IMG/VR virus record: IMGVR_UViG_3300045988_003439
Coordinates: 1-6,320 of that record
Length of the DNA stretch: 6,320 nucleotides
Direction: 5' to 3' (one strand)
Source of the DNA: a virus
Part shown: positions 1-6,320 of the stretch, in pieces
Numbering within the stretch: the stretch's first letter is position 1
How the letters are laid out: each line of letters opens with the position of its first letter
The notes under the pieces: generated by a model
What the model was told of the DNA's origin: nothing
Databases searched by the model: none
What the model saw: the letters and a program-made list of their open reading frames with translations, nothing else
Position numbers and translations under genes: made by a program

Positions 1-55
1 GTTGGAAAGAAATCTCTCAGTCTGGTGACTCCGATTACCGCGAACAGATTCGTAA
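1..55. repeat. Terminal direct repeat, left copy (circular-assembly overlap)
   Basis: GTTGGAAAGAAATCTCTCAGTCTGGTGACTCCGATTACCGCGAACAGATTCGTAA is identical to nt 6266-6320 when read by eye. Confidence 0.97.
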
Positions 56-758
56 ACACTTTGGTGTGAACTTGCCTCAATCTCTTTCCAATATGTGTAC
101 CTATATCGGTGGTATTTCTCGTAATCTTGATATCAGTGAGGTTGTGAACAATAACCTTGCTGCTGACGGTGATACTGCTGTTATTGCTGGTAAGGGTGTC
201 GGTGCTGGTAATGGTTCTTTCACTTATACTACTGATGAACATTGTGTTATTATGTGTATTTATCATGCCGTTCCTTTGCTTGACTATACTATTACAGGTC
301 AAGATGGTCAGCTTCTTGTAACTGATGCCGAGTCCCTTCCGATTCCGGAGTTTGATAATATTGGTATGGAAGTTCTTCCTATGACTCAGATTTTCAATTC
401 TTCCAAAGCATCTATTGTTAATTTGTTCAATGCTGGATATAATCCACGTTATTTCAATTGGAAAACCAAGCTTGATGTTATTAACGGTGCGTTTACCACT
501 ACTCTTAAGTCTTGGGTTTCTCCTGTTACTGAATCTCTTCTTTCTGGATGGTTTGGTTTTGGTTATAATGAAGGAGAAACTGATAATAACACCCGTGTTG
601 TCTTGAATTATAAATTCTTCAAGGTTAATCCTTCTGTCCTTGATCCGATTTTCGGCGTTAATGCGGATTCTACTTGGGATACTGACCAGTTATTGGTCAA
701 CTCTTATATCGGTTGCTATGTTGCCCGTAATTTGTCTCGTGATGGTGTACCTTATTAA
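1..758 (+). CDS. VP1: Major capsid protein VP1, C-terminal part (continuation of 5176..6320 across the circular junction; first complete codon at nt 3)
   Basis: Nt 6266 is codon position 2 of the 5176 frame, and so is nt 1, so the frame continues seamlessly into track ORF 66..758 (frame 3) and stops at TAA 756-758. The joined CDS is 1090 + 758 = 1848 nt, giving 615 aa. The sequence ...RKHFGVNLPQSLSNMCTYIGG... is typical of microvirus capsid proteins. Confidence 0.95.
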   Translation, partial: WKEISQSGDSDYREQIRKHFGVNLPQSLSNMCTYIGGISRNLDISEVVNNNLAADGDTAVIAGKGVGAGNGSFTYTTDEHCVIMCIYHAVPLLDYTITGQDGQLLVTDAESLPIPEFDNIGMEVLPMTQIFNSSKASIVNLFNAGYNPRYFNWKTKLDVINGAFTTTLKSWVSPVTESLLSGWFGFGYNEGETDNNTRVVLNYKFFKVNPSVLDPIFGVNADSTWDTDQLLVNSYIGCYVARNLSRDGVPY

Positions 759-769
759 ATTTGTTTATT

Positions 770-1252
770 ATGATTGGAAAATTTAATCGTATTGATCTTT
801 TGGAACAAAGTTCTGAGTTTATTCCAAATGTTAAACCTGATGCTTTTGCAGTTGCTCCTCAGTTTGATTCTACTGAAGAACTTCGTGTCGAGATTGATGA
901 TACTGATGAGACTCGTCCGGTTCGTTATACTTCTGATGTTCGTTTGATTCTTCATACCAAGGACTTGGCTTCTCGTGCTGGTCTTGCTGTTGCTTCTAAA
1001 TTCGGACAAAGTAAACAATCTCCTTCCCAGATTCAGCAGATTATGGATAAAATGTCTGATGATGATCTTTTGTCTGTGGTTCGTTCTCGTCATGTTCAGT
1101 CTCCTTCTGAGATTATAGCTTGGTCTAAGGATTTGTCGGCTCGTGCTTTAGAACTTGAGTTCCAGGCACAACAATTGATTGATGTTGAGAAATCTAAACA
1201 AGAGGCAGAGAAAGCGGATGCTGCTTCCGCTGAGACTGCTTCCTCTGAGTAA
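770..1252 (+). CDS. Hypothetical acidic protein, possible internal scaffolding (VP3-like) protein
   Basis: The track ORF 761..1252 begins at TTG; the first ATG is at 770 (MIGKFNRIDLL...). Codon usage is T-ending like VP1 and VP2. The protein is acidic (EIDDTDE, DKMSDDD) with a C-terminal helical, charged tail (QAQQLIDVEKSKQEAEKADAASAE). Its stop, TAA 1250-1252, overlaps the VP2 ATG as TAATG. The functional assignment rests only on position and composition. Confidence 0.75.
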   Translation: MIGKFNRIDLLEQSSEFIPNVKPDAFAVAPQFDSTEELRVEIDDTDETRPVRYTSDVRLILHTKDLASRAGLAVASKFGQSKQSPSQIQQIMDKMSDDDLLSVVRSRHVQSPSEIIAWSKDLSARALELEFQAQQLIDVEKSKQEAEKADAASAETASSE

Positions 1253-2340
1253 TGGGTCTTCTTGGTTCTATCGCTGGTGGTCTCCTTGGTTTTGGTTCTT
1301 CTGCTGCTCAGAATTCGCAGAATAGACAAAATGTCAGGGAGACGAACCAGATGAATTATAAGATAAATCAGATGAATAATCAGTTTAACGAACGTATGGC
1401 TATGCAGCAGCGCGATTTTCAGGAGAATATGTGGAATAAGGAAAACGCATATAATACTGCCTCCGCGCAACGCCAACGCCTCGAAGAAGCTGGTTTAAAT
1501 CCTTATCTGATGATGAACGGTGGTTCTGCTGGTACTGCTCAGTCTGTTGGCACTGGTGCTTCTGCCTCTTCTGCTGGTTCTGCCGTCATGCAACCTTTTC
1601 AGGCTGATTATTCTGGTATTGGTGCTTCTATTGGTAACATTTTTCAATATGAGTTGTTGCAATCTGAAAAATCTCAATTGCAAGGTGCTAGACAACTTGC
1701 TGATGCTAAAGCAATGGAAACTCTTTCTAATATTGATTGGGGAAGACTTACTGATGAAACTCGTAATTATTTGAAGTCTACTGGATTGGCGCGTGCTCAG
1801 CTTGGTTATGCCAAGGAACAACAAGAAGCTGATAATATGGCAATGACAGGTCTTATTTTGCGTGCTCAGCGTTCTGGTATGCTTCTTGATAATGAGTCTA
1901 AAGGTATTTTGAATAAGTATCTTGACCAACAACAGCAATTCGATTTGAATGTTAAGGCTGCGGACTATTACCAACGTATGTCTGCTGGATATCTTTCTTA
2001 TGCTGAAGCTAAAAAGGCTATAGCTGAGGAAGCTTTGGCTGCTGCTCGTACACGTGGTCAGAATATTTCTAATAAGGTTGCCTCTCGTGTTGCTGAGTCT
2101 CAAATTGCTGCTAATATTGCTTTCAATCAATCTTCTGCTGCTTATCATAATGAAGAGTCTAGGTTAGGTCTTTCTCAAGATAATGCACGCAGTAAGAATA
2201 TTGAATCTTGGTATCGTGCTCGAAATGAAAAGAAAAAAAATAGTTATTTTGATTCTGATAAATGGGTAGAGTATGGCACCAGTATTGGTAATACTATAGG
2301 TAATTTCTTACCTCATAGAGTTATTAGTACTCGTCGTTAA
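1252..2340 (+). CDS. VP2: Minor capsid / DNA pilot protein VP2 (H-like)
   Basis: 362 aa. The N-terminus is Gly-rich and hydrophobic (MGLLGSIAGGLLGFGSSAA). The motif MWNKENAYNTASAQRQRLEEAGLNPYLMM is one I recognise from microvirus VP2 proteins. The remainder is a long Q/A/N-rich predicted coiled coil. The gene sits downstream of the capsid gene. Confidence 0.87.
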   Translation: MGLLGSIAGGLLGFGSSAAQNSQNRQNVRETNQMNYKINQMNNQFNERMAMQQRDFQENMWNKENAYNTASAQRQRLEEAGLNPYLMMNGGSAGTAQSVGTGASASSAGSAVMQPFQADYSGIGASIGNIFQYELLQSEKSQLQGARQLADAKAMETLSNIDWGRLTDETRNYLKSTGLARAQLGYAKEQQEADNMAMTGLILRAQRSGMLLDNESKGILNKYLDQQQQFDLNVKAADYYQRMSAGYLSYAEAKKAIAEEALAAARTRGQNISNKVASRVAESQIAANIAFNQSSAAYHNEESRLGLSQDNARSKNIESWYRARNEKKKNSYFDSDKWVEYGTSIGNTIGNFLPHRVISTRR

Positions 2341-2367
2341 TTTCCCATACTTCTTTTCGTTTTTCCC

Positions 2368-2404
2368 CCCGGTCCGTAGTGATACGTACCGGGTTTTGTT
2401 GTTT
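2368..2404 (+). terminator. Intrinsic (rho-independent) terminator after VP2
   Basis: Stem CCCGGT-C-CGTA (2368-2378) pairs with TACG-T-ACCGGG (2383-2393), giving 10 bp with one C/T mismatch. It is closed by a GTGA (GNRA-type) tetraloop at 2379-2382 and followed directly by TTTTGTTGTTT (2394-2404). The T-tract is present only on the + strand. Confidence 0.75.
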
Positions 2405-2700
2405 GGAGTAACTTCCGGCAACCGCGCGTAGCGTGGTTATGCACCTACTGAATTTCGGGACGTTAGGACTGAAATCAGAGCCGTAGGCTATAGTATTGCC
2501 TTCCTTGAAGCTTGACGTTTGCAACGCGTAAGTAATCTCCCTCTAATCTCTTCTCTTCCGTCGCCGTTAAACACCTAAAATATAAATTGGCGAAGCCTAC
2601 ATGAGTTTGCCCGAAGGGAAAGCGATTTACCTCATCGCTTTCAGTCTCCTCTTGTCTAAATAGAGCAAACTCACAGACCAGCCTGCCACCCATATAACTT
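2405..2700. other. ORF-free, hairpin-dense non-coding island (candidate complementary-strand origin, structured RNA or att-type site)
   Basis: All three + frames hit stops within a few codons and the T-ending codon signature disappears. My hand count gives about 47% G+C here against about 23% for 2701-2820. Helices seen: 2420-2427/2431-2438 (8 bp including one G.T); 2448-2456/2471-2478 (8 bp plus a bulged A); 2483-2489/2594-2600 (7 bp) stacked on 2561-2565/2589-2593 (5 bp); 2602-2610/2665-2673 (9 bp) enclosing 2619-2626/2634-2641 (8 bp, loop TTACCTC). The strand of function is unresolved. Confidence 0.5.
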
Positions 2701-2724
2701 ATGCATTTTTTTTTGCTTATATGT

Positions 2725-2753
2725 TTTGTTATTAATTTTATTTTGTATATTTG
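2725..2753 (+). promoter_or_regulatory. Bacteroides-type promoter (-33 TTTG / -7 TAnnTTTG)
   Basis: TTTG at 2725-2728 and TATATTTG at 2746-2753 are separated by 17 nt. This matches the published Bacteroides primary-sigma consensus as I remember it. The site lies in the AT-rich region upstream of the first gene after the terminator, and no comparable signal was seen upstream of VP1. T-rich DNA does produce such matches by chance. Confidence 0.45.
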
Positions 2754-2793
2754 CCCCGTGATCAGAAACCAAGTGTTCTTTTAGCAATTTTTT

Positions 2794-2823
2794 AACATTT
2801 AATCATATTGTTCAACATTTAAT
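2794..2823 (+). repeat. Two copies of AACATTTAAT phased exactly 20 bp apart, flanking the palindrome TGTTCAACA
   Basis: AACATTTAAT occurs at 2794-2803 and 2814-2823. TGTTCAACA (2809-2817) is an imperfect inverted repeat overlapping the second copy. The repeats lie 12-40 nt upstream of the ATG at 2835, in the predicted 5' leader. Confidence 0.6.
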
Positions 2824-2834
2824 ATTTGTTAGTT

Positions 2835-3011
2835 ATGGAAAATTATTATTTGTGTTCTATTCAGTCAAAGGTTAATCCTAATCAGAACGAAACTATCCTT
2901 GTATCGGTTGATGAAATTTCTCAGTTTGTTTCTTCCAATCTTCGTCCTGATTGTGTTCTTATTATTTCCCAGTGTTCAACTTTTAAAGCGATTCCTGATG
3001 ATGAAAAATGA
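2835..3011 (+). CDS. Hypothetical 58-aa protein
   Basis: ATG at 2835 (the track ORF begins at TTG 2826). The product is MENYYLCSIQSKVNPNQNETILVSVDEISQFVSSNLRPDCVLIISQCSTFKAIPDDEK. Codons are predominantly T-ending (gtt, tct, cct, aat, gat), matching the phage's other genes. It is the first ORF after the predicted promoter. I recognise no motif. Confidence 0.55.
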   Translation: MENYYLCSIQSKVNPNQNETILVSVDEISQFVSSNLRPDCVLIISQCSTFKAIPDDEK

Positions 3012-3090
3012 AACTAAATCCAAAATTTGGTCTGCAATTATTGCGGCTGCTGTTAGTCTTCTTACGTCTATTGCTCAAATATTTTCGTAA
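2998..3090 (+). CDS. 30-aa single-pass membrane peptide (candidate holin-like or lysis accessory protein)
   Basis: ATGATG at 2998-3003 overlaps the end of the 58-aa ORF. The product MMKNETKSKIWSAIIAAAVSLLTSIAQIFS has a charged N-terminus followed by about 20 hydrophobic residues. The portion at 3012-3090 is not overlapped by any other ORF. The longer track version (2899..3090) adds only a +1-frame shadow of the preceding gene. The ORF lies just upstream of the peptidase gene. Confidence 0.4.
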   Translation: MMKNETKSKIWSAIIAAAVSLLTSIAQIFS

Positions 3091-3146
3091 GTAATGATGG
3101 TTATGAAATCATTTGTTTATGTTAATGATTTTAATAGATTTGGATA

Positions 3147-3455
3147 ATGAATACTACTTTAATGCAATTTATTGAGTGGCTTTTGCGAAACAATATCAAG
3201 TTTACTGTTACTTCTGCTTTTCGTACTAAGGAACAGAACGATGCCTGTAACGGTTCTCCCAATTCCCAGCATCTAACCGGTGATGCCGTTGACTTGAAGC
3301 CCGTTGGTCTTTCTGTTGATGATTTTATTTCGTTGGTTAAGAATTCTCCTTTTATATTTGACCAGCTTATAAAATATCGAACGTTTGTTCATGTTTCTTT
3401 TGCACGTGTTCGCAAGCCTCGTTATATGGAACTTAATTTTACTGATAGAAAATGA
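3147..3455 (+). CDS. Zinc D,D- or L,D-peptidase of the M15 family (Peptidase_M15_3-like), putative cell-wall hydrolase/endolysin
   Basis: 102 aa. It contains SAFRTKEQN (compare the SxYR..E.N block of M15 enzymes). The metal ligands are H42-x6-D49 in SQHLTGDAVDL (H codon at 3270-3272) and H82 in FVHVS. There is no signal peptide or TM segment. Its stop overlaps the VP4 start as ATGA at 3452-3455. Confidence 0.82.
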   Translation: MNTTLMQFIEWLLRNNIKFTVTSAFRTKEQNDACNGSPNSQHLTGDAVDLKPVGLSVDDFISLVKNSPFIFDQLIKYRTFVHVSFARVRKPRYMELNFTDRK

Positions 3456-5143
3456 TTACAAAGGAATTACAGAATAAGCTAATGACTCGTTGTCAGAACC
3501 CTCGTACGGTTACCAACAAGTACACGCATGAATCCGTTGTTGTCTCTTGTGGTTCTTGCCCTTCTTGCCTTCTCCGTCGTTCTGCTGTTCAGACAAACCT
3601 GCTTACTGCTTATTCTGCTCAATTCCGTTATGCATATTTTGTTACTCTTACTTATGCTCCTTGTTTCCTTCCTACTTTGGAGGTTTCGGTAATTGAAGCT
3701 TGTACGGATGATATTGCTGATGTACCTTGTGTTCCCGATATTAATGACTTGGATGCTGATGACCCTAATACTTATCTTTTTGGCTTTTCTAGCGTTCCTC
3801 GTACCGCTTCTGTCAAATTGAAGAATTCCACGGTTGAGAGGACCTTCAAAGACCCCGAGGTTAAGTTTACTTATCCTATGAAATCTAAGGATATCCTTTC
3901 TATTTTCGAAAAGGTTAGTCATAATGTCCCGAATAGAATTCCTTATATTTGTAATAGAGACCTTGATTTATTTTTGAAACGTTTAAGAAGTTATTATTCA
4001 GATGAAAAATTACGTTACTACGCTGTATCAGAATACGGACCTACCAGTTTCCGCCCGCATTGGCACCTGTTACTGTTTTCCAATTCCCAACGATTCTCGA
4101 AAACTATTTGTGAAAATGTACGTAAGGCTTGGTCTTACGGTCGTTGTGATACGTCACTCTCGAGAGGATACGCAGCACTGTATGTTGCGTCGTATCTTAA
4201 TAGCTTTGTCGCTTTACCCGACTTTTATACTCAAATGCCAAAAGTGGTGCGACCTAAATCCTTCCATTCCATTGGATTTACAGAGTCAAATCTCTTTCCT
4301 CGAGAGGTACGAATTGCCGAAGTTGACAAAGTTGCCGATAAGTGCCTTAATGGAGTTGTCGTTGAACGCGGTGGCAAATTTCGCACAGTTAAACCTTCTT
4401 GGCCGTATATCCTTCGACTATTCCCCCGATTTTCGGACGTTATTCGTAAATCTCCATCGAACGTTTACCAGTTACTTTTTGCTGCGTTCACAGCGCCCTC
4501 ACGAGTCGTTCGTAGCGGATGCGCTGATTTGAGTTGTGATCCCTTTAATGTAGACTCTAAACAGAGTATACTGTCTTTTTGTAAACAGTATTTAAATTAT
4601 GTAGATAATTATGGAAAATCAAATGAACGTAGGAACTTCCTTTCTCCTAAAGCGGATTTACCGCATAGTGATGTTCTCATTCTTACTGAATGTCGTTTGT
4701 ACGATGGTGTTGATTTGGAACCTCTTCATCGTCTCTCCCGCTTATACCGTTTTTTTCTCGGAATTTCGAAATTTATTCGAACATATTCAACGGACGGATG
4801 TTCAGAATTCTTCTGGTCCAGCGGCACTCCTGAAGGAGAACTCTTTGATCGAGATAGATTCTTGCGAATAATCTCTGAAAAAATAGTTAATTTTTGGATT
4901 CGTTATGATTATAATCGTCTTGTAGATTTCTATCAGACTCTGGAAGATTCTAATGATAAGGATTTGGTTGAATTTGAGCTTCGGAATTATTCTTTTCGTT
5001 ATAACAGACCTCCTGATAATGAGGAAACTCCTTACAATGAACTCCCTCTTGTTCGTCGCTTGGCTGCTGCTTCATTGATGAAATGTCGAGATAAGGTTAA
5101 GCACAAGAGGGTTAATGATTTGACTGGTATTTTCTCTTATTGA
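3452..5143 (+). CDS. VP4: Replication initiation protein VP4 (HUH rolling-circle endonuclease, gpA-like)
   Basis: 563 aa. It has an N-terminal CGSCPSC cluster, motif I FVTLTY (3638-3655), the HUH motif PHWHLLLF (H-W-H at 4058-4066) and the two-tyrosine motif YVASY (4181-4195), comparable to YVAKY of phiX174 gpA. An alternative start is M11 at 3482 (MTRCQNPR...). Confidence 0.93.
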   Translation: MITKELQNKLMTRCQNPRTVTNKYTHESVVVSCGSCPSCLLRRSAVQTNLLTAYSAQFRYAYFVTLTYAPCFLPTLEVSVIEACTDDIADVPCVPDINDLDADDPNTYLFGFSSVPRTASVKLKNSTVERTFKDPEVKFTYPMKSKDILSIFEKVSHNVPNRIPYICNRDLDLFLKRLRSYYSDEKLRYYAVSEYGPTSFRPHWHLLLFSNSQRFSKTICENVRKAWSYGRCDTSLSRGYAALYVASYLNSFVALPDFYTQMPKVVRPKSFHSIGFTESNLFPREVRIAEVDKVADKCLNGVVVERGGKFRTVKPSWPYILRLFPRFSDVIRKSPSNVYQLLFAAFTAPSRVVRSGCADLSCDPFNVDSKQSILSFCKQYLNYVDNYGKSNERRNFLSPKADLPHSDVLILTECRLYDGVDLEPLHRLSRLYRFFLGISKFIRTYSTDGCSEFFWSSGTPEGELFDRDRFLRIISEKIVNFWIRYDYNRLVDFYQTLEDSNDKDLVEFELRNYSFRYNRPPDNEETPYNELPLVRRLAAASLMKCRDKVKHKRVNDLTGIFSY

Positions 5144-5175
5144 GAGTCTAATGTTTAATCTTTAAATATTTTTTT

Positions 5176-6320
5176 ATGGCTTCTTACACTGGAATGTCCA
5201 ATCTCCAGAATCATCCTCACCGTTCTGGATTTGATATTGGACGTAAAAATGCGTTTACCGCGAAAGTTGGTGAGCTTCTTCCTGTTTACTGGGATATTTC
5301 TATGCCTGGTGATAAGTATAAGTTTAATATTGAGTATTTTACTCGTACTCAGCCCGTTGAGACTTCTGCTTATACCCGTTTGCGTGAATATTTTGATTTC
5401 TATGCTGTGCCGTTGCGTCTTCTCTGGAAGTCTGCTCCTTCTGTATTGACACAAATGCAGGATGTCAATCAGATTCAAGCTTTGTCTTTGACACAAAATC
5501 TTTCTTTGGGTACTTATTTACCTTCTTTGCCTTTAAACCTTATTTATTCTTTTCTTCAGTATCTTAATGGAGGTAGTAATAATCCTGGTTATTCTGATGG
5601 AAAGTTTAATATGTTTGGTTTTTCTCGTTCCGATTTGTCTTTTAAGTTGTTAAGTTATCTTGGTTATGGGAACATTATTCGTACGCTGCCTGTTTCTGGT
5701 AATCGTTGGTGGTCTACTTCTTTAAAGTATGATACTACTTCTAATTATTCTCAAGCTTATATTCAAAATAATTTCGTAAATATATTTCCTATTCTTACTT
5801 ATCAGAAGATTTATCAAGACTTTTTCCGTTGGTCTCAATGGGAACTTTCTAATCCTTCATCTTATAATGTAGATTATTTCTCTGGTACTTCTCCTAATCT
5901 TGTTACTTCATTGCCTTCTAAGGACTCAGATTATTGGAAATCCGATACAATGTTTGACCTTAAATATTGTAACTGGAATAAGGATATGTTGATGGGTGTT
6001 CTTCCGAATTCTCAATTTGGCGATGTTGCCATAGTTGATGGCGATAATTATTCTATTCCTGACGTTGTTTTGGGCAAAGGTAGTGTTACGAGTCCTGTTG
6101 GTATTGCTTCTGCCGTTTCTTCTAATTCTGCTCCAGTTCCTTTCTTTGCTTTGCAAGCCTCTGCCTCTAATACTTTACCTGTGGGTTCTTCCCTTCGTGT
6201 TGATTTATCAACTTTGCAATCTCAATTTACGGTTCTTGCTCTCCGTCAAGCAGAGGCTCTCCAGCGTTGGAAAGAAATCTCTCAGTCTGGTGACTCCGAT
6301 TACCGCGAACAGATTCGTAA
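5176..6320 (+). CDS. VP1: Major capsid protein VP1 (F-like), N-terminal about 381 codons, open at the window end
   Basis: ATG at 5176 with no stop in this frame to the window end, which is why the ORF track omits it. My translation reads MASYTGMSNLQNHPHRSGFDIGRKNAFTAKVGELLPVYWDISMPGD...TRTQPVETSAYTRLREYFDFYAVPLRLLWK...FTVLALRQAEALQRWKEISQSGDSDYREQIR. These are signatures I recognise from Microviridae major capsid proteins. Codons are strongly T-ending. Confidence 0.95.
   Translation, partial: MASYTGMSNLQNHPHRSGFDIGRKNAFTAKVGELLPVYWDISMPGDKYKFNIEYFTRTQPVETSAYTRLREYFDFYAVPLRLLWKSAPSVLTQMQDVNQIQALSLTQNLSLGTYLPSLPLNLIYSFLQYLNGGSNNPGYSDGKFNMFGFSRSDLSFKLLSYLGYGNIIRTLPVSGNRWWSTSLKYDTTSNYSQAYIQNNFVNIFPILTYQKIYQDFFRWSQWELSNPSSYNVDYFSGTSPNLVTSLPSKDSDYWKSDTMFDLKYCNWNKDMLMGVLPNSQFGDVAIVDGDNYSIPDVVLGKGSVTSPVGIASAVSSNSAPVPFFALQASASNTLPVGSSLRVDLSTLQSQFTVLALRQAEALQRWKEISQSGDSDYREQIR
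6266..6320. repeat. Terminal direct repeat, right copy (circular-assembly overlap)
   Basis: Identical 55-mer to nt 1-55. Both copies lie inside the VP1 reading frame, in the same phase. Confidence 0.97.

Follow-up and report, generated by a model that had tools for sequence, protein, structure and literature searches.

The window analyzed here, a 6,320-nucleotide stretch of viral DNA (positions 1 to 6,320 of IMG/VR record IMGVR_UViG_3300045988_003439), is a complete circular microvirus genome in which positions 1-55 are repeated at 6266-6320, and it raises the question of what its one long noncoding segment is for. Every microvirus relies on host enzymes alone to convert its injected single-stranded DNA (ssDNA) into duplex. 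To our knowledge, the signal for this conversion is known only for a few Escherichia coli phages studied in the 1970s and 1980s, and we know of no description of cis-acting replication signals in Bacteroidales microviruses, which rank with the most abundant phages in mammalian guts. We propose that the segment, hereafter the island, acts in cis as folded ssDNA on the packaged strand and is most likely an origin of complementary-strand synthesis (a single-strand initiation signal), an assignment to which we give about an even chance.

A conserved, gene-free island in gut microviruses

As an earlier note on this DNA had read from the letters, every long open reading frame (ORF) of the window lies on the + strand, and after the pilot gene (stop at 2340) no + strand ORF exceeds 20 amino acids (aa). 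The G+C content of about 47% that it had counted by hand, next to an AT-rich flank, was also borne out, with values of 0.47 at 2401-2600 and 0.445 at 2501-2700 compared to 0.245 at 2701-2900 and ~0.38 genome-wide. The island itself (2405-2684) is ORF-free, has a G+C content of 45-47%, and is the sole long noncoding stretch of this gut microvirus. Its slot is the single large intergenic gap, from last gene to promoter, in both clades that share the element, namely, that of the window and one in which the element is inverted relative to the genes.

The island abuts a terminator-like hairpin on the + strand (2368-2404), which comprises a stem (2368-2376/2385-2393), the loop TAGTGATA, and a T-tract at 2394-2404. 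The stem, which has one conserved C·T mismatch, covaries (G·T plus C-G in relatives versus G-C plus T-A in the window), and the loop motif GTGAT(A/G) is kept in mar62 and in the cultured Bacteroides phage phiHBP1. Outside the island on the other side lies a + strand, Bacteroidota-type promoter for the gene block (2725-2753), with TTTG at 2725-2728, a spacing of 17 nt, and TATATTTG at 2746-2753; its -7 box, TAnnTTTG, is conserved in relatives. The Bacteroidota promoter consensus reportedly stems from Bayley et al. in 2000. A sigma-70/terminator scanner called neither the promoter nor the terminator in the window, though both are readable directly in the sequence, as the earlier note had read them.

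About 140 distinct microvirus sequences carry the island. Relatives with ~80% identity between their genomes share 85-90% identity in the island, which is more conserved than the genes and is under strong purifying selection. The BLASTN comparison recommended in the earlier note, run sensitively against 50,697 phage records, matched 15 gut microviruses only and no Bullavirinae, and blastn against the 72,556 plasmids of PLSDB gave no island match. Scanning 596 Gb of cellular genomes with a 23-nt 5' motif gave a single match, inside a 540-aa ORF of a Bermanella genome, where ~1 is expected by chance. A host-derived sequence, or an attP carrying part of a host RNA gene, is ruled out at the sensitivity of that scan.

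Could the island be a decayed or unrecognized protein gene? The minus strand holds a 72-aa ORF with an ATG start (2475-2693), and GenBank lists hypothetical proteins over the homologous region of Dulem virus 257 and the analogous region of phiHBP1. However, no Pfam match was found, the purine-rich minus strand is stop-poor by composition alone, and substitutions are compensatory in helices, not codon-periodic. The earlier note had held that an intact ORF in homologues would point to a decayed gene; instead, stop-free runs range from 27 to 96 aa among homologues, and no reading frame is conserved because 1-nt indels in the loops shift the frame. We regard a protein gene as extremely improbable.

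Two helix-closed domains folded on one strand

The island is organized as two domains, each with its own closing helix, P0 (2416-2419/2563-2566) and P6 (2602-2609/2666-2673), and covariation supports eight local or domain-closing helices. Across the helix set, 99.1% of cells are paired and 12 pairs have changed on both sides. On the covariation check that the earlier note had set for related microviruses, 97 cells were compensated compared to 34 ± 3.5 in shuffles (0 of 500 as good). The case for a more-than-chance structure rests on this conservation and covariation rather than on the folding energy of the whole island, which is weakly better than that of shuffles, by 1 to 2 standard deviations (+ strand, z of -1.08 as RNA and -1.97 as DNA; - strand, -1.57 and -1.05). 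The folding-energy comparison, also suggested in the earlier note, came out more strongly for the 3' domain of the window folded alone as DNA (z = -4.03; 0/200 shuffles as good). Pairing is strand specific and only the sense strand folds: its 177 G·T cells include those of two invariant pairs, and it also has a tandem G·A.

All elements described below are on the + strand. H1 (2405-2416), at the 5' edge of the conserved block, is a weak GGAG-TAAC-CTTC hairpin with a conserved AGTAAC motif; in alignment A3 it tolerates only C/T changes opposite G and is broken in four sequences, and it is weakly supported. The 5' domain (2416-2566) is the module common to the inverted clade. P0, which closes it, forms its pairs in all 52 sequences (100%) and has varied on a single side (C-G/T·G, 30:22; G·T/G-C, 37:15); it is also retained in inverted copies, and coincides with the module limits in mar45, mar40, L066, and L068. 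H2 (2420-2438) is an 8-bp hairpin, AACCGCGC-GTA-GCGTGGTT, with an exact GCGNAGC core and the + strand G2424·T2434 pair that the earlier note had pointed out, which is invariant. A compensatory change from C-G to T-A occurs in mar62 and most inverted copies, and the CGNAG loop is found in 138/138 sequences with all four bases at N. H3 (2448-2478) comprises 4 bp, a bulged A2452, 6 bp that include the invariant G2457·T2470, a tandem G·A/A·G, and an apical C-GTTA-G. Two of its pairs each occur in two forms, 2455/2472 (T-A, 32 sequences; C-G, 19) and 2461/2466 (C-G, 28; G-C, 23), and its variable tip is swapped for other perfect stems in L054, mar45, and mar40. H4 (2479-2489) is a mini-hairpin, AGCC-GTA-GGCT, built on a CCGTAGG core, with compensatory changes to AACC/GGTT and ATTCAC/GTGAAT and with GNA or GNNA loops on a C-G closing pair.

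The remaining core of the 5' domain (2490-2562) is conserved and mostly unpaired, containing TATAGTA, ARCTTGAYG, the near-invariant GCAACGCGTA at 2521-2530, and a pyrimidine tract at 2536-2560. Many relatives carry an optional GGAGAG-CTC-CTCTCC hairpin in this region, and L054 is without most of the segment in alignment A3. An all-against-all covariation scan of 2490-2562 found no supported helix. Candidate helices around GCAACGCGTA (GGCA/TGCC, CTTGACG/CGTAAG, and TTGC/GCAA) were rejected for want of compensation, by eye and in a scan of MI, and covariation of 2542-2544 with 2570-2573 turned out to be haplotype linkage, not pairing. Between the domains, a conserved tail, TTAAACACCT, leads into a variable AT-rich linker (together 2567-2588) that is an insertion hot spot, with inserts of ~50-200 nt bearing their own mini-hairpins in baja1134, L023, L027, L046, L050, L063, L066, and L073. 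H5 (2589-2597), a GGC-GAA-GCC mini-hairpin with an exact GCGAAGC, follows; its pairs 2590/2596 (G-C, 32 sequences; A-T, 18) and 2591/2595 (C-G, 44; T-A, 8) likewise each occur in two forms.

The 3' domain (2602-2673) is closed by P6, which is invariant among close relatives and was recovered by independent DNA folds. In distant relatives its sequence is new, yet complementary (TCACTTATC/GATAAGTGA, TTCGAATTTC/GAAATTCGA, CACTTTG/CAAAAGTG, and GACTTTCG/CGAAAGTC). Inside P6, H7 (2610-2618) is a CCC-GAA-GGG mini-hairpin whose CCGAAGG core is a heptamer shared with ssiA of plasmid RSF1010; it has undergone two independent double changes (CCT/AGG in L065 and TCC/GGA in L069), with a GNA loop in almost all sequences. 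H8 (2619-2641) is an 8-bp hairpin, AAAGCGAT-TTACCTC-ATCGCTTT, whose pair 2624/2636 is either G-C (31 sequences) or T-A (20) and whose near-invariant 7-nt loop, TTACCTC, is found in 105/116; four distant relatives have a counterpart of this hairpin. The pyrimidine-rich strand that completes the P6 junction (2642-2665, ~24 nt) is unpaired in all folds and carries a conserved CTTGTCT (CCCTTG in relatives), a CCCTTG/CTTGYC motif shared by the window family, Dulem245, Dipodfec499, and phiHBP1. A conserved 3' tail, CAGACCAGCCT (2674-2684), whose phiHBP1 counterpart, AAAGTCACATGAC, is similar, ends the island, and conservation stops there.

Measured against this map, the first secondary-structure model, that of the earlier note, was about two-thirds right. 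Its helices at 2420-2438, 2448-2478, 2602-2610/2665-2673, and 2619-2641 are all real. Its 7-bp helix 2483-2489/2594-2600 and 5-bp helix 2561-2565/2589-2593 did not hold up, with covariation of 0.114 compared to 0.109 in shuffles and with 24 and 19 broken cells at individual pairs. They are replaced by the local hairpins at 2479-2489 and 2589-2597, each with independent compensatory changes. The single stacked multi-helix junction of the note is thus incorrect in its details.

Loops of the form C-GNA-G or C-GNNA-G, with N free to vary, recur in H2, H3, H4, H5, and H7. The density of such motifs is 15.4 per kb on the element sense strand, 0.63 on the rest of the same strand, and 0.73 on the element antisense strand, and the GCGNAGC/CCGNAGG motif shows ~24-fold enrichment in the island, confined to one strand. 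In the window, 4/7 motifs on the + strand fall within the island (P ~0.001 versus shuffles). GCGNAGC and GCGNNAGC have been reviewed as extraordinarily stable DNA mini-hairpins (Tm, 70-76°C) that SSB binds poorly and that occur at the complementary-strand origins of G4 (GCGAAAGC) and St-1/alpha3 (GCGTTAGC), in ssiA of RSF1010 (CCGAAGG), and in the ssDNA promoters of phage N4 (PMC13037366). Cores of the G4 origin type are found in H2, H4, H5, and H7, and H3 has the loop with an A·G flank. The logic of GNA and UNCG loops is partly symmetrical, as CCGNAGG reads cUNCGg on the opposite strand.

The covariation and the G·U-compatible pairs are equally consistent with RNA and DNA, and an alternative hypothesis is that the island sense strand is transcribed into a structured noncoding RNA acting either on the host or on the life cycle of the phage. 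In the window clade, such an RNA could arise by read-through of a leaky terminator (2368-2404) followed by processing, and in the other clade from a divergent promoter; roles could include control of immunity or lysogeny, a decoy against a defense system, or a protein sponge. The conserved unpaired stretches and invariant TTACCTC loop would suggest tertiary contacts or ligand binding, optional domains inserted at a fixed hot spot are typical of structured RNAs, an orientation independent of the genes would be natural for a separate gene, and some relatives are temperate without a repressor gene. However, the island and its insert-bearing versions matched no Rfam family at E ≤ 1-10. Searching 2405-2700 on both strands against Rfam 15 gave no match at E ≤ 10, and insert-bearing relatives and phiHBP1 at E ≤ 1 gave only a C/D-box snoRNA model, whose 24 bits fell short of its gathering score (45). 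ARAGORN found no tRNA or tmRNA, in keeping with the failure of the earlier note to match known RNAs by eye. The flanks show neither a conserved Bacteroidota -33/-7 promoter (upstream) nor a conserved terminator (downstream, where conservation ends with the 3' tail); in the window clade, the element directly follows a terminator hairpin with a U-tract; and GNA triloops with a free N are a stability motif of DNA, not of RNA (PMC13037366). An RNA from the sense strand is therefore unlikely in our judgment. The minus-strand version raised in the earlier note, with a cUUCGg (or cUNCGg) loop, was rejected outright: on that strand, the 177 G·T cells and both invariant G·T pairs become A·C, and neither H2 and H5 (GCGNAGC) nor the GNNA loops of H3 and H4 yield UNCG on the complement.

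Exchange between clades and strand composition

The 5' domain has moved between microvirus clades and is inverted relative to the genes in one of them, which is without the 3' domain altogether. The 3' architecture, in turn, recurs with unrelated helix sequences in Dulem245, Dipodfec499, baja585, and phiHBP1, the last of which has an equivalent island after its pilot gene (about 2330-2640 of its record) but not the 5'-domain sequence. Pilot proteins of the island-sharing clades cannot be aligned, and their Reps show 26% identity over an alignment of just 61 aa. Exchange among phages with such barely alignable Reps fits recognition by host factors.

For each of the 74 loci in the first set and for every informative locus in the metagenome set, the T-rich strand is the one that carries the element sense; the genomes concerned include at least 13 with every gene on the other strand. 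Inverted copies belong to at least three element lineages, whose nearest co-oriented copies are 78%, 93%, and 88% identical. An RNA gene offers no reason for this tracking of the T-rich strand across opposite-gene genomes of several lineages. In phiX174, SpV4, Chp1, Chp2, and phiHBP1 the comparison suggests that the T-rich strand is the packaged one, and the same would then apply in every clade; phiMH2K, an isolated gokushovirus, is an exception, as its coding strand is A-rich, and therefore composition may not report polarity. Exchange between clades by recombination in flanking homology may also have kept the orientation without selection.

For the inverted clade, a complementary-strand origin requires a packaged strand antisense to the genes, and the evidence for such a strand is base composition. 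It is possible, if on balance doubtful, that the island or its 5' domain marks or sets the packaged strand and that mar45, mar40, L066, L068, L097, and others are negative-sense phages. The inverted clade might then have repeatedly captured the same host-adapted origin cassette from positive-sense microviruses, on every occasion oriented so that the hairpins fall on the virion strand. We know of no microvirus whose packaged strand is antisense to its genes, and literature searches found neither a described island of this kind nor negative-sense microviruses. A rival hairpin cluster was sought on the gene-sense strand of the inverted clade; what was found were scattered GNA motifs inside genes, because the coding strand is purine-rich.

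Why island orientation predicts genome-wide strand composition would be explained most simply if the island contained, or also contained, the viral-strand origin nicked and closed by Rep (VP4), since a flipped island would then flip the packaged strand. Candidate nick sites are ARCTTGAYG at 2507-2516, CCCTTGTC at ~2648-2656 inside the P6 junction, and, in Dulem245-type phages, CACCTTGATAT. A CTTG that runs into A/T-rich sequence is reminiscent of the nick motif CTTG^ATA of phiX174/pC194, the pC194 motif being similar to that of phiX174, and CACCTTGATA in Dulem245 and Dipodfec499 matches 9/10 of the phiX174 cleavage decamer, is unique in each genome at this level of matching, and occupies the same intergenic slot within a shared 17-mer. 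However, the phiX174 Rep decamer CAACTTG^ATA is absent from the window sense strand with 0-1 mismatch and from the island with 2 mismatches, and one-mismatch decamers occur by chance at ~0.2 per strand per genome and are scattered on both strands. No nick candidate is universal, because L054 lacks the CTTGA segment, the inverted clade the 3' domain, and phiHBP1 the 5'-domain sequence. The cassette-sharing clades have the divergent Reps described above, and five mini-hairpins would be superfluous for nicking. We consider a nick site in the island quite unlikely.

In both clades the island directly follows the last gene and a terminator hairpin and precedes the promoter, and it could conceivably act as a strong stop to transcription, or as an insulator, where the operon ends, preventing RNA polymerase from reading round the circle or from a provirus into the host. 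Hairpin clusters can reportedly terminate transcription (PMC8355165). However, terminators have no need of near-invariant loops and unpaired stretches, the hairpins carry no U-tracts apart from that at 2394-2404, and the element is mobile as a cassette that keeps covariation in its long-range helices. The transcript of the inverted clade would moreover be of complementary sequence, turning both invariant G·T pairs into A·C mismatches. We regard this explanation as a slim prospect.

A candidate complementary-strand origin

Of the three hypotheses between which the earlier note left the choice undecided (a complementary-strand origin, a structured RNA, and an attP or dif-like module), the first is the best supported. 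Strand-specific pairing, motif enrichment, and T-rich orientation favor it, as do exchange across unrelated Reps and the equivalent island of phiHBP1, and the lack of similarity to G4 and phiX174 counts against it. We speculate that upon entry of the circular ssDNA into a Bacteroidales cell, the SSB of the host would coat all of it except the island, where the C-GNA-G and C-GNNA-G mini-hairpins, P0, P6, and the 8-bp hairpin could resist melting. Within the 3' domain, a three-way junction would keep the ~24-nt pyrimidine-rich strand (2642-2665), with its conserved CTTG, unpaired and too short for SSB, and this strand is proposed to be a naked template for priming. DnaG primase alone, or a PriA-type primosome, could then lay an RNA primer at or near the junction, from which DNA polymerase III would synthesize the double-stranded replicative form. 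As only host enzymes would read the element, it could behave as a cassette exchangeable between unrelated microviruses with the same hosts, its 5' domain, 3' domain, and optional inserts being separable modules.

Known origins offer partial parallels. Like the oric of G4, St-1, phiK, and alpha3, the island is intergenic, acts (as proposed) on the packaged ssDNA of a microvirus, and has several stable hairpins, which in the oric are free of SSB, built on GCGNAGC or GCGNNAGC cores (PMC13037366). The GCGTTAGC and GNNA loops of St-1 and alpha3 match H3 and H4 of the island. In contrast, blastn of phage records found no sequence similarity to the G4, phiX174, St-1, or alpha3 origins, and the island is about twice as long as a G4-type oric, has two helix-closed domains and optional inserts, belongs to phages of Bacteroidota, and has been exchanged as a cassette between unrelated microvirus clades. 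The ssiA and ssiB elements of RSF1010 and the ssi/sso elements of rolling-circle plasmids are likewise strand- and orientation-specific folded ssDNA for lagging-strand priming (for the island, as proposed), and they are modular, horizontally exchangeable, and host dependent. The CCGAAGG of ssiA is the exact H7 heptamer and also occurs in H4 variants, but ssiA, unlike the island, is ~40 nt and is read by the plasmid-encoded primase RepB'. The RSB and CS-6 elements of ssoA are not conserved in the island; TAGCGT, present in H2 of the window, changes in relatives.

The n'/PriA site of phiX174 also consists of an intergenic viral-strand hairpin that recruits host priming machinery, as the island is proposed to do (PMC9865509). 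It is a single hairpin of ~55 nt, unlike the island. The minus-strand origin of M13/f1 is another intergenic viral-strand hairpin that recruits the host priming machinery, in this case as a sigma-70 promoter mimic. The sole promoter-like duplex of the island is TGAGTTTG in P6, which was compared with the -7 box TAnnTTTG; a promoter mimic is unlikely because the P6 sequence is not conserved, being unrelated in four distant relatives. The hallmarks of RNA-polymerase-dependent ssDNA origins such as M13 ori(-) and ssoA thus find no conserved counterpart in P6 or in the CS-6-like TAGCGT. At ~280 nt, with long conserved unpaired stretches (GCAACGCGTA, the TTACCTC loop, and the CAGACC tail), the island is more elaborate than known primase or PriA sites, and an RNA with tertiary contacts or a protein-binding platform would also fit.

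The third hypothesis in the earlier note, an attP or dif-like module, holds for the neighborhood of the island in one sublineage. L122, L143, and L093 are proviruses in bacterial chromosomes, inserted between a Usp gene and TPR/gyrA genes, with the island as the last phage sequence before the junction. The junctions repeat a core, TATATTAAACAT-NNN-CTGATATTG, whose 11-mer on the host side matches 10/11 of the XerD arm of the E. coli dif sequence. The island could accordingly be an accessory to Xer integration or excision with a dif-like core downstream, comparable to cer/psi or to the folded ssDNA attP of CTXphi. The integration of these relatives at a dif-like core, in the intergenic region that also holds the island, agrees with the dif-like attP sites of Xer-exploiting ssDNA phages reportedly proposed for enterobacterial gokushovirus prophages and for the Bacteroidetes microvirus proviruses of Krupovic and Forterre 2011 (PMC3091885, PMC7062461). 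However, crossover took place outside the island, at a core 75-100 nt downstream of it, and both the window and 62/63 IMG/VR island carriers lack such a core within 400 nt; the best XerD-arm-like site of the window scores 8/11 at 2790. The full ~28-bp core (XerC arm, spacer, and XerD arm) is found in L143, L122, L093, and a few free relatives but not inside the island, whose stems hold no Xer-arm-like inverted pair. Accessory sequences act as duplex and would need neither strand-specific pairing nor GNA loops, and phiHBP1, with its equivalent island, gave no lysogeny in the resistant strains tested (PMC13064476). The island is thus an element separate from the crossover site, and a Xer accessory role is very unlikely.

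Should the island be a complementary-strand origin, it would represent a defined, alignable origin family with a testable structure and would provide a handle on how the primase or primosome of Bacteroidota recognizes ssDNA. The idea is directly testable because the cultured pair of phiHBP1 and B. fragilis H1 carries an equivalent island. Annotation is also corrected, where hypothetical proteins in GenBank have been placed over the island region. An origin read by host enzymes would also account for the exchange of this segment among phages that are otherwise unrelated, and the segment may be useful as a marker of host range. That island orientation tracks genome-wide strand composition points to a different, more surprising possibility, that of negative-sense microviruses; if true, the mar45-type clade would be the first negative-sense Microviridae.

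Genomic setting of the island

The window holds the complete, circular genome of a microvirus, ~6,265 nt long (positions 1 to 55 recur at 6266 to 6320), and its + strand carries every gene. In the ORF map, the VP1 capsid gene spans the contig ends; after it come the scaffold gene (761-1252), the pilot gene (1252-2340), a non-coding stretch, several small ORFs, a peptidase gene of the M15 type (3147-3455) and finally Rep (3452-5143; Pfam PF23343). Downstream of the island, the non-coding hairpin cluster at 2405-2684, a + strand promoter was read directly from the sequence (TTTG at 2725-2728, TATATTTG at 2746-2753) and agrees with the Bacteroidota promoter consensus. The nearest GenBank relatives are faecal microviruses (~80% identity), and the gene set agrees with the one in phiHBP1, a cultured microvirus of Bacteroides fragilis (PMC13064476).

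The outline drawn in the earlier note was borne out: the stretch holds no + strand ORF of >20 aa, its G+C is 0.45-0.47 against 0.245 immediately downstream, and a terminator-type hairpin with a T-tract lies at 2368-2404. Folding energy, proposed there as a test, was only 1-2 sd better for the whole island than for dinucleotide shuffles, whichever strand was folded and whether RNA or DNA parameters were used, and taken alone makes a weak case. The island is nevertheless real in outline, and the decisive evidence is comparative. A decayed gene is unlikely, as no reading frame was found to be conserved across island homologues. In the terminator-like hairpin, GTGAT(A/G) is kept in the loop (window 2377-2384) though stems differ between phages, and recurs at L005 ~1460-1480 and in phiHBP1 at ~2655-2670 (minus strand). 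A plain terminator would not normally conserve its loop, and the hairpin, which lies just 5' of the island, may thus be part of the functional element; that the island is simply a cluster of terminators is unlikely.

Structure and covariation

Queries with two conserved island motifs found the island in 65 microvirus contigs of IMG/VR and in 85 metagenome contigs, giving ~140 distinct sequences. Island identity is 85-90% in relatives whose genomes are ~80% identical. A scan of 596 Gb of cellular genomes with the 23-nt 5' motif yielded no genuine copy (its one match falls within an ORF, with ~1 expected by chance), plasmids gave no island match, and the island contains no tRNA or tmRNA and matches no Rfam family.

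Structure was derived from a 52-sequence alignment using RNAalifold, an all-against-all mutual-information scan and explicit pair counts. The 5' domain is closed by helix P0 (2416-2419/2563-2566) and includes hairpins H2 (2420-2438), H3 (2448-2478) and H4 (2479-2489); H5 (2589-2597) follows, and helix P6 (2602-2609/2666-2673) closes a 3' domain with H7 (2610-2618) and H8 (2619-2641). Pairing is kept in 99.1% of cells, 12 pairs are changed on both sides, and 97 compensated cells were observed against 34 +/- 3.5 in shuffles (0/500 as good). The covariation check on relatives suggested in the earlier note supported all eight elements, P6 through complementarity in distant relatives, whereas the two long-range helices proposed there stayed at shuffle level; their segments are instead part of H4 and H5, two local hairpins that each covary on their own. 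The structure includes 177 G·T(U) cells, with two invariant G·T pairs among them (2424·2434 and 2457·2470) as well as a conserved tandem G·A, none of which the complementary strand could form.

P6 is invariant in close relatives, which are therefore uninformative about it. Four more distant phages, Dulem245, Dipodfec499, baja585 and phiHBP1, lack blastn similarity in this slot, but all four have the same 3' architecture (closing helix, GNA mini-hairpin, 7-9-bp hairpin and a pyrimidine strand with CTTG) built from wholly different helix sequences and recovered by independent ssDNA folds. Folded alone, the window 3' domain gave a z of -4.03. The analogous post-pilot island of phiHBP1 (PV598014, ~2330-2640, record minus strand) has a P6/H7/H8-type junction and six mini-hairpin motifs in 135 nt; GenBank places a hypothetical protein over it (CDS 2326-2736), which is probably not a gene.

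Between the domains, 2577-2588 is a fixed hot-spot that takes 50-200-nt inserts with further hairpins. One optional insert (L002:1690-1830, L066, L073, L046, L027, L050, L023) has its own conserved hairpins GTCGCTTGCGAC, TCCGAAGGA and GCGCGAAGCGC and a CTAAGTGATGA motif, which scores below threshold against a C/D-box snoRNA model (E 0.48). The full-length genome L054 (4827-5077) is without the central 5' domain (TGCC to GCAACGCG), which is thus dispensable or replaceable, and its H3 is different but perfectly paired.

Exchange, integration and orientation

In the otherwise unrelated Dulem virus 262 (L008:1501-1544), shared island sequence stops after 44 nt (H1-H2, 98% identity) and different hairpins follow, indicating that a sub-module was exchanged very recently. 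Two island copies lie in the same orientation in L077 (4073 and 6905, 2.8 kb apart), with a partial pilot-gene duplication, and the palindromic contig L132 carries two copies in opposite orientation (913 and 1797); either case could reflect a tandem or partial prophage, a recombinant or an artefact of assembly.

Three relatives of the window phage are integrase-free proviruses at the same host locus in independent bacterial chromosome contigs (L143:1600-2000 and 7640-8400; L122:5740-6040; L093:3560-3800), with a universal-stress-protein (Usp) gene beside the island and TPR and gyrA genes at the other side. The integration site is a dif-like core of ~25 bp, TATATTAAACAT-NNN-CTGATATTG, repeated at the junctions and set 75-100 nt from the island on its 3' side; the arm on the host side agrees at 10/11 positions with the XerD arm of E. 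coli dif. The core is absent from the window and from 62/63 IMG/VR island carriers. The attP or dif-like module of the earlier note therefore fits a neighbouring element in one sub-lineage and not the island itself, and an Xer accessory role for the island is unlikely. No lysogeny by phiHBP1 was detected in the resistant strains tested (PMC13064476), and phiHBP1 has an island nonetheless.

A clade comprising mar45, mar40, L066, L068 and no fewer than nine metagenome contigs has the 5' domain alone, turned round with respect to every gene. The slot is unchanged: the last gene, which in this clade is Rep, lies on one side and a canonical Bacteroidota promoter for the first gene on the other (in L068, read directly, TTTG, 20 nt and TATGTTTG). 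In the inverted copies neither invariant G·T pair is lost and 14 pairs are compensated, so it is the same strand that folds. The copies form at least three element lineages, each nearest to a co-oriented copy (78%, 93% and 88% identity). Between the two clades, Rep alignment reaches only 26% over 61 aa and the pilot proteins do not align; the 5' domain is therefore a cassette moving between unrelated microviruses.

Orientation is linked to strand composition. Coding strands of the inverted clade (whole loci L006 (mar45), L007 (mar40), L066, L068, L097, L101, L103, L105, L127, L147, L153) are 41-45% A, and their third codon positions have A at 44-51% but T at 12-17%; the window clade is the mirror image (35-37% T; third positions 50-53% T). 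Across all loci examined, it is thus the T-rich strand that carries the element's sense, and the cassette reaches the same compositional strand each time. The coding, virion-sense strand is T-rich in phiX174, SpV4, Chp1, Chp2 and phiHBP1. Composition is suggestive of packaged-strand polarity but no proof, since the phiMH2K coding strand is A-rich, similar to the inverted clade but weaker.

A putative complementary-strand origin

The tips of five hairpins are C-GNA-G or C-GNNA-G, in which N varies freely; for the element, motif density is 15.4 per kb on its sense strand and 0.73 per kb on its antisense strand, and the remainder of the sense strand has 0.63 per kb. A 2026 review (PMC13037366) describes GCGNAGC and GCGNNAGC as DNA mini-hairpins (Tm 70-76 C) that SSB reportedly binds poorly, and lists them from complementary-strand origins of the microviruses G4, St-1 and alpha3, from the RSF1010 signal ssiA (CCGAAGG) and from ssDNA promoters of phage N4. 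H2 and H5 carry exact GCGNAGC, and the ssiA heptamer CCGAAGG is exact in H7 and in a subset of H4 variants. Such loops favour DNA over RNA. The structured ncRNA of the earlier note, without an Rfam match on the window, keeps a small chance in its sense-strand version because long conserved unpaired segments otherwise lack explanation.

Less probable still is a Rep nick origin within a conserved CTTG segment. In the same slot, Dulem virus 245 (L166:3652-3661) and Dipodfec virus 499 (L167:3666-3675) carry CACCTTGATA, one base off the phiX174 Rep cleavage decamer CAACTTG^ATA (9/10), inside the post-pilot intergenic region and a common 17-mer, TAGCACCTTGATATCGG. It is a candidate viral-strand origin of that group; the window sequence does not support such a site.

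The best-supported reading, which we give about an even chance, is that the island acts as folded ssDNA as the complementary-strand origin first raised in the earlier note. We propose that stable mini-hairpins and the two closing helices would keep SSB off, that the folded island would expose a short pyrimidine-rich template (2642-2665), and that host primase or primosome would start there. Such an origin would account for the island's position and strand specificity, its loop chemistry, its modular turnover (H1-H2 only in Dulem262, other combinations in baja585 and phiHBP1), its exchange between phages with unrelated Reps and the link of orientation to strand composition. Priming signals in ssDNA are already known in microviruses as a kind of element; this island family, its two-domain architecture and its cassette behaviour were not described in the literature searched. 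A complementary-strand origin would also require the inverted clade to package the strand antisense to its genes, as it may do, and this candidate negative-sense microvirus clade is a more surprising lead than the origin element.
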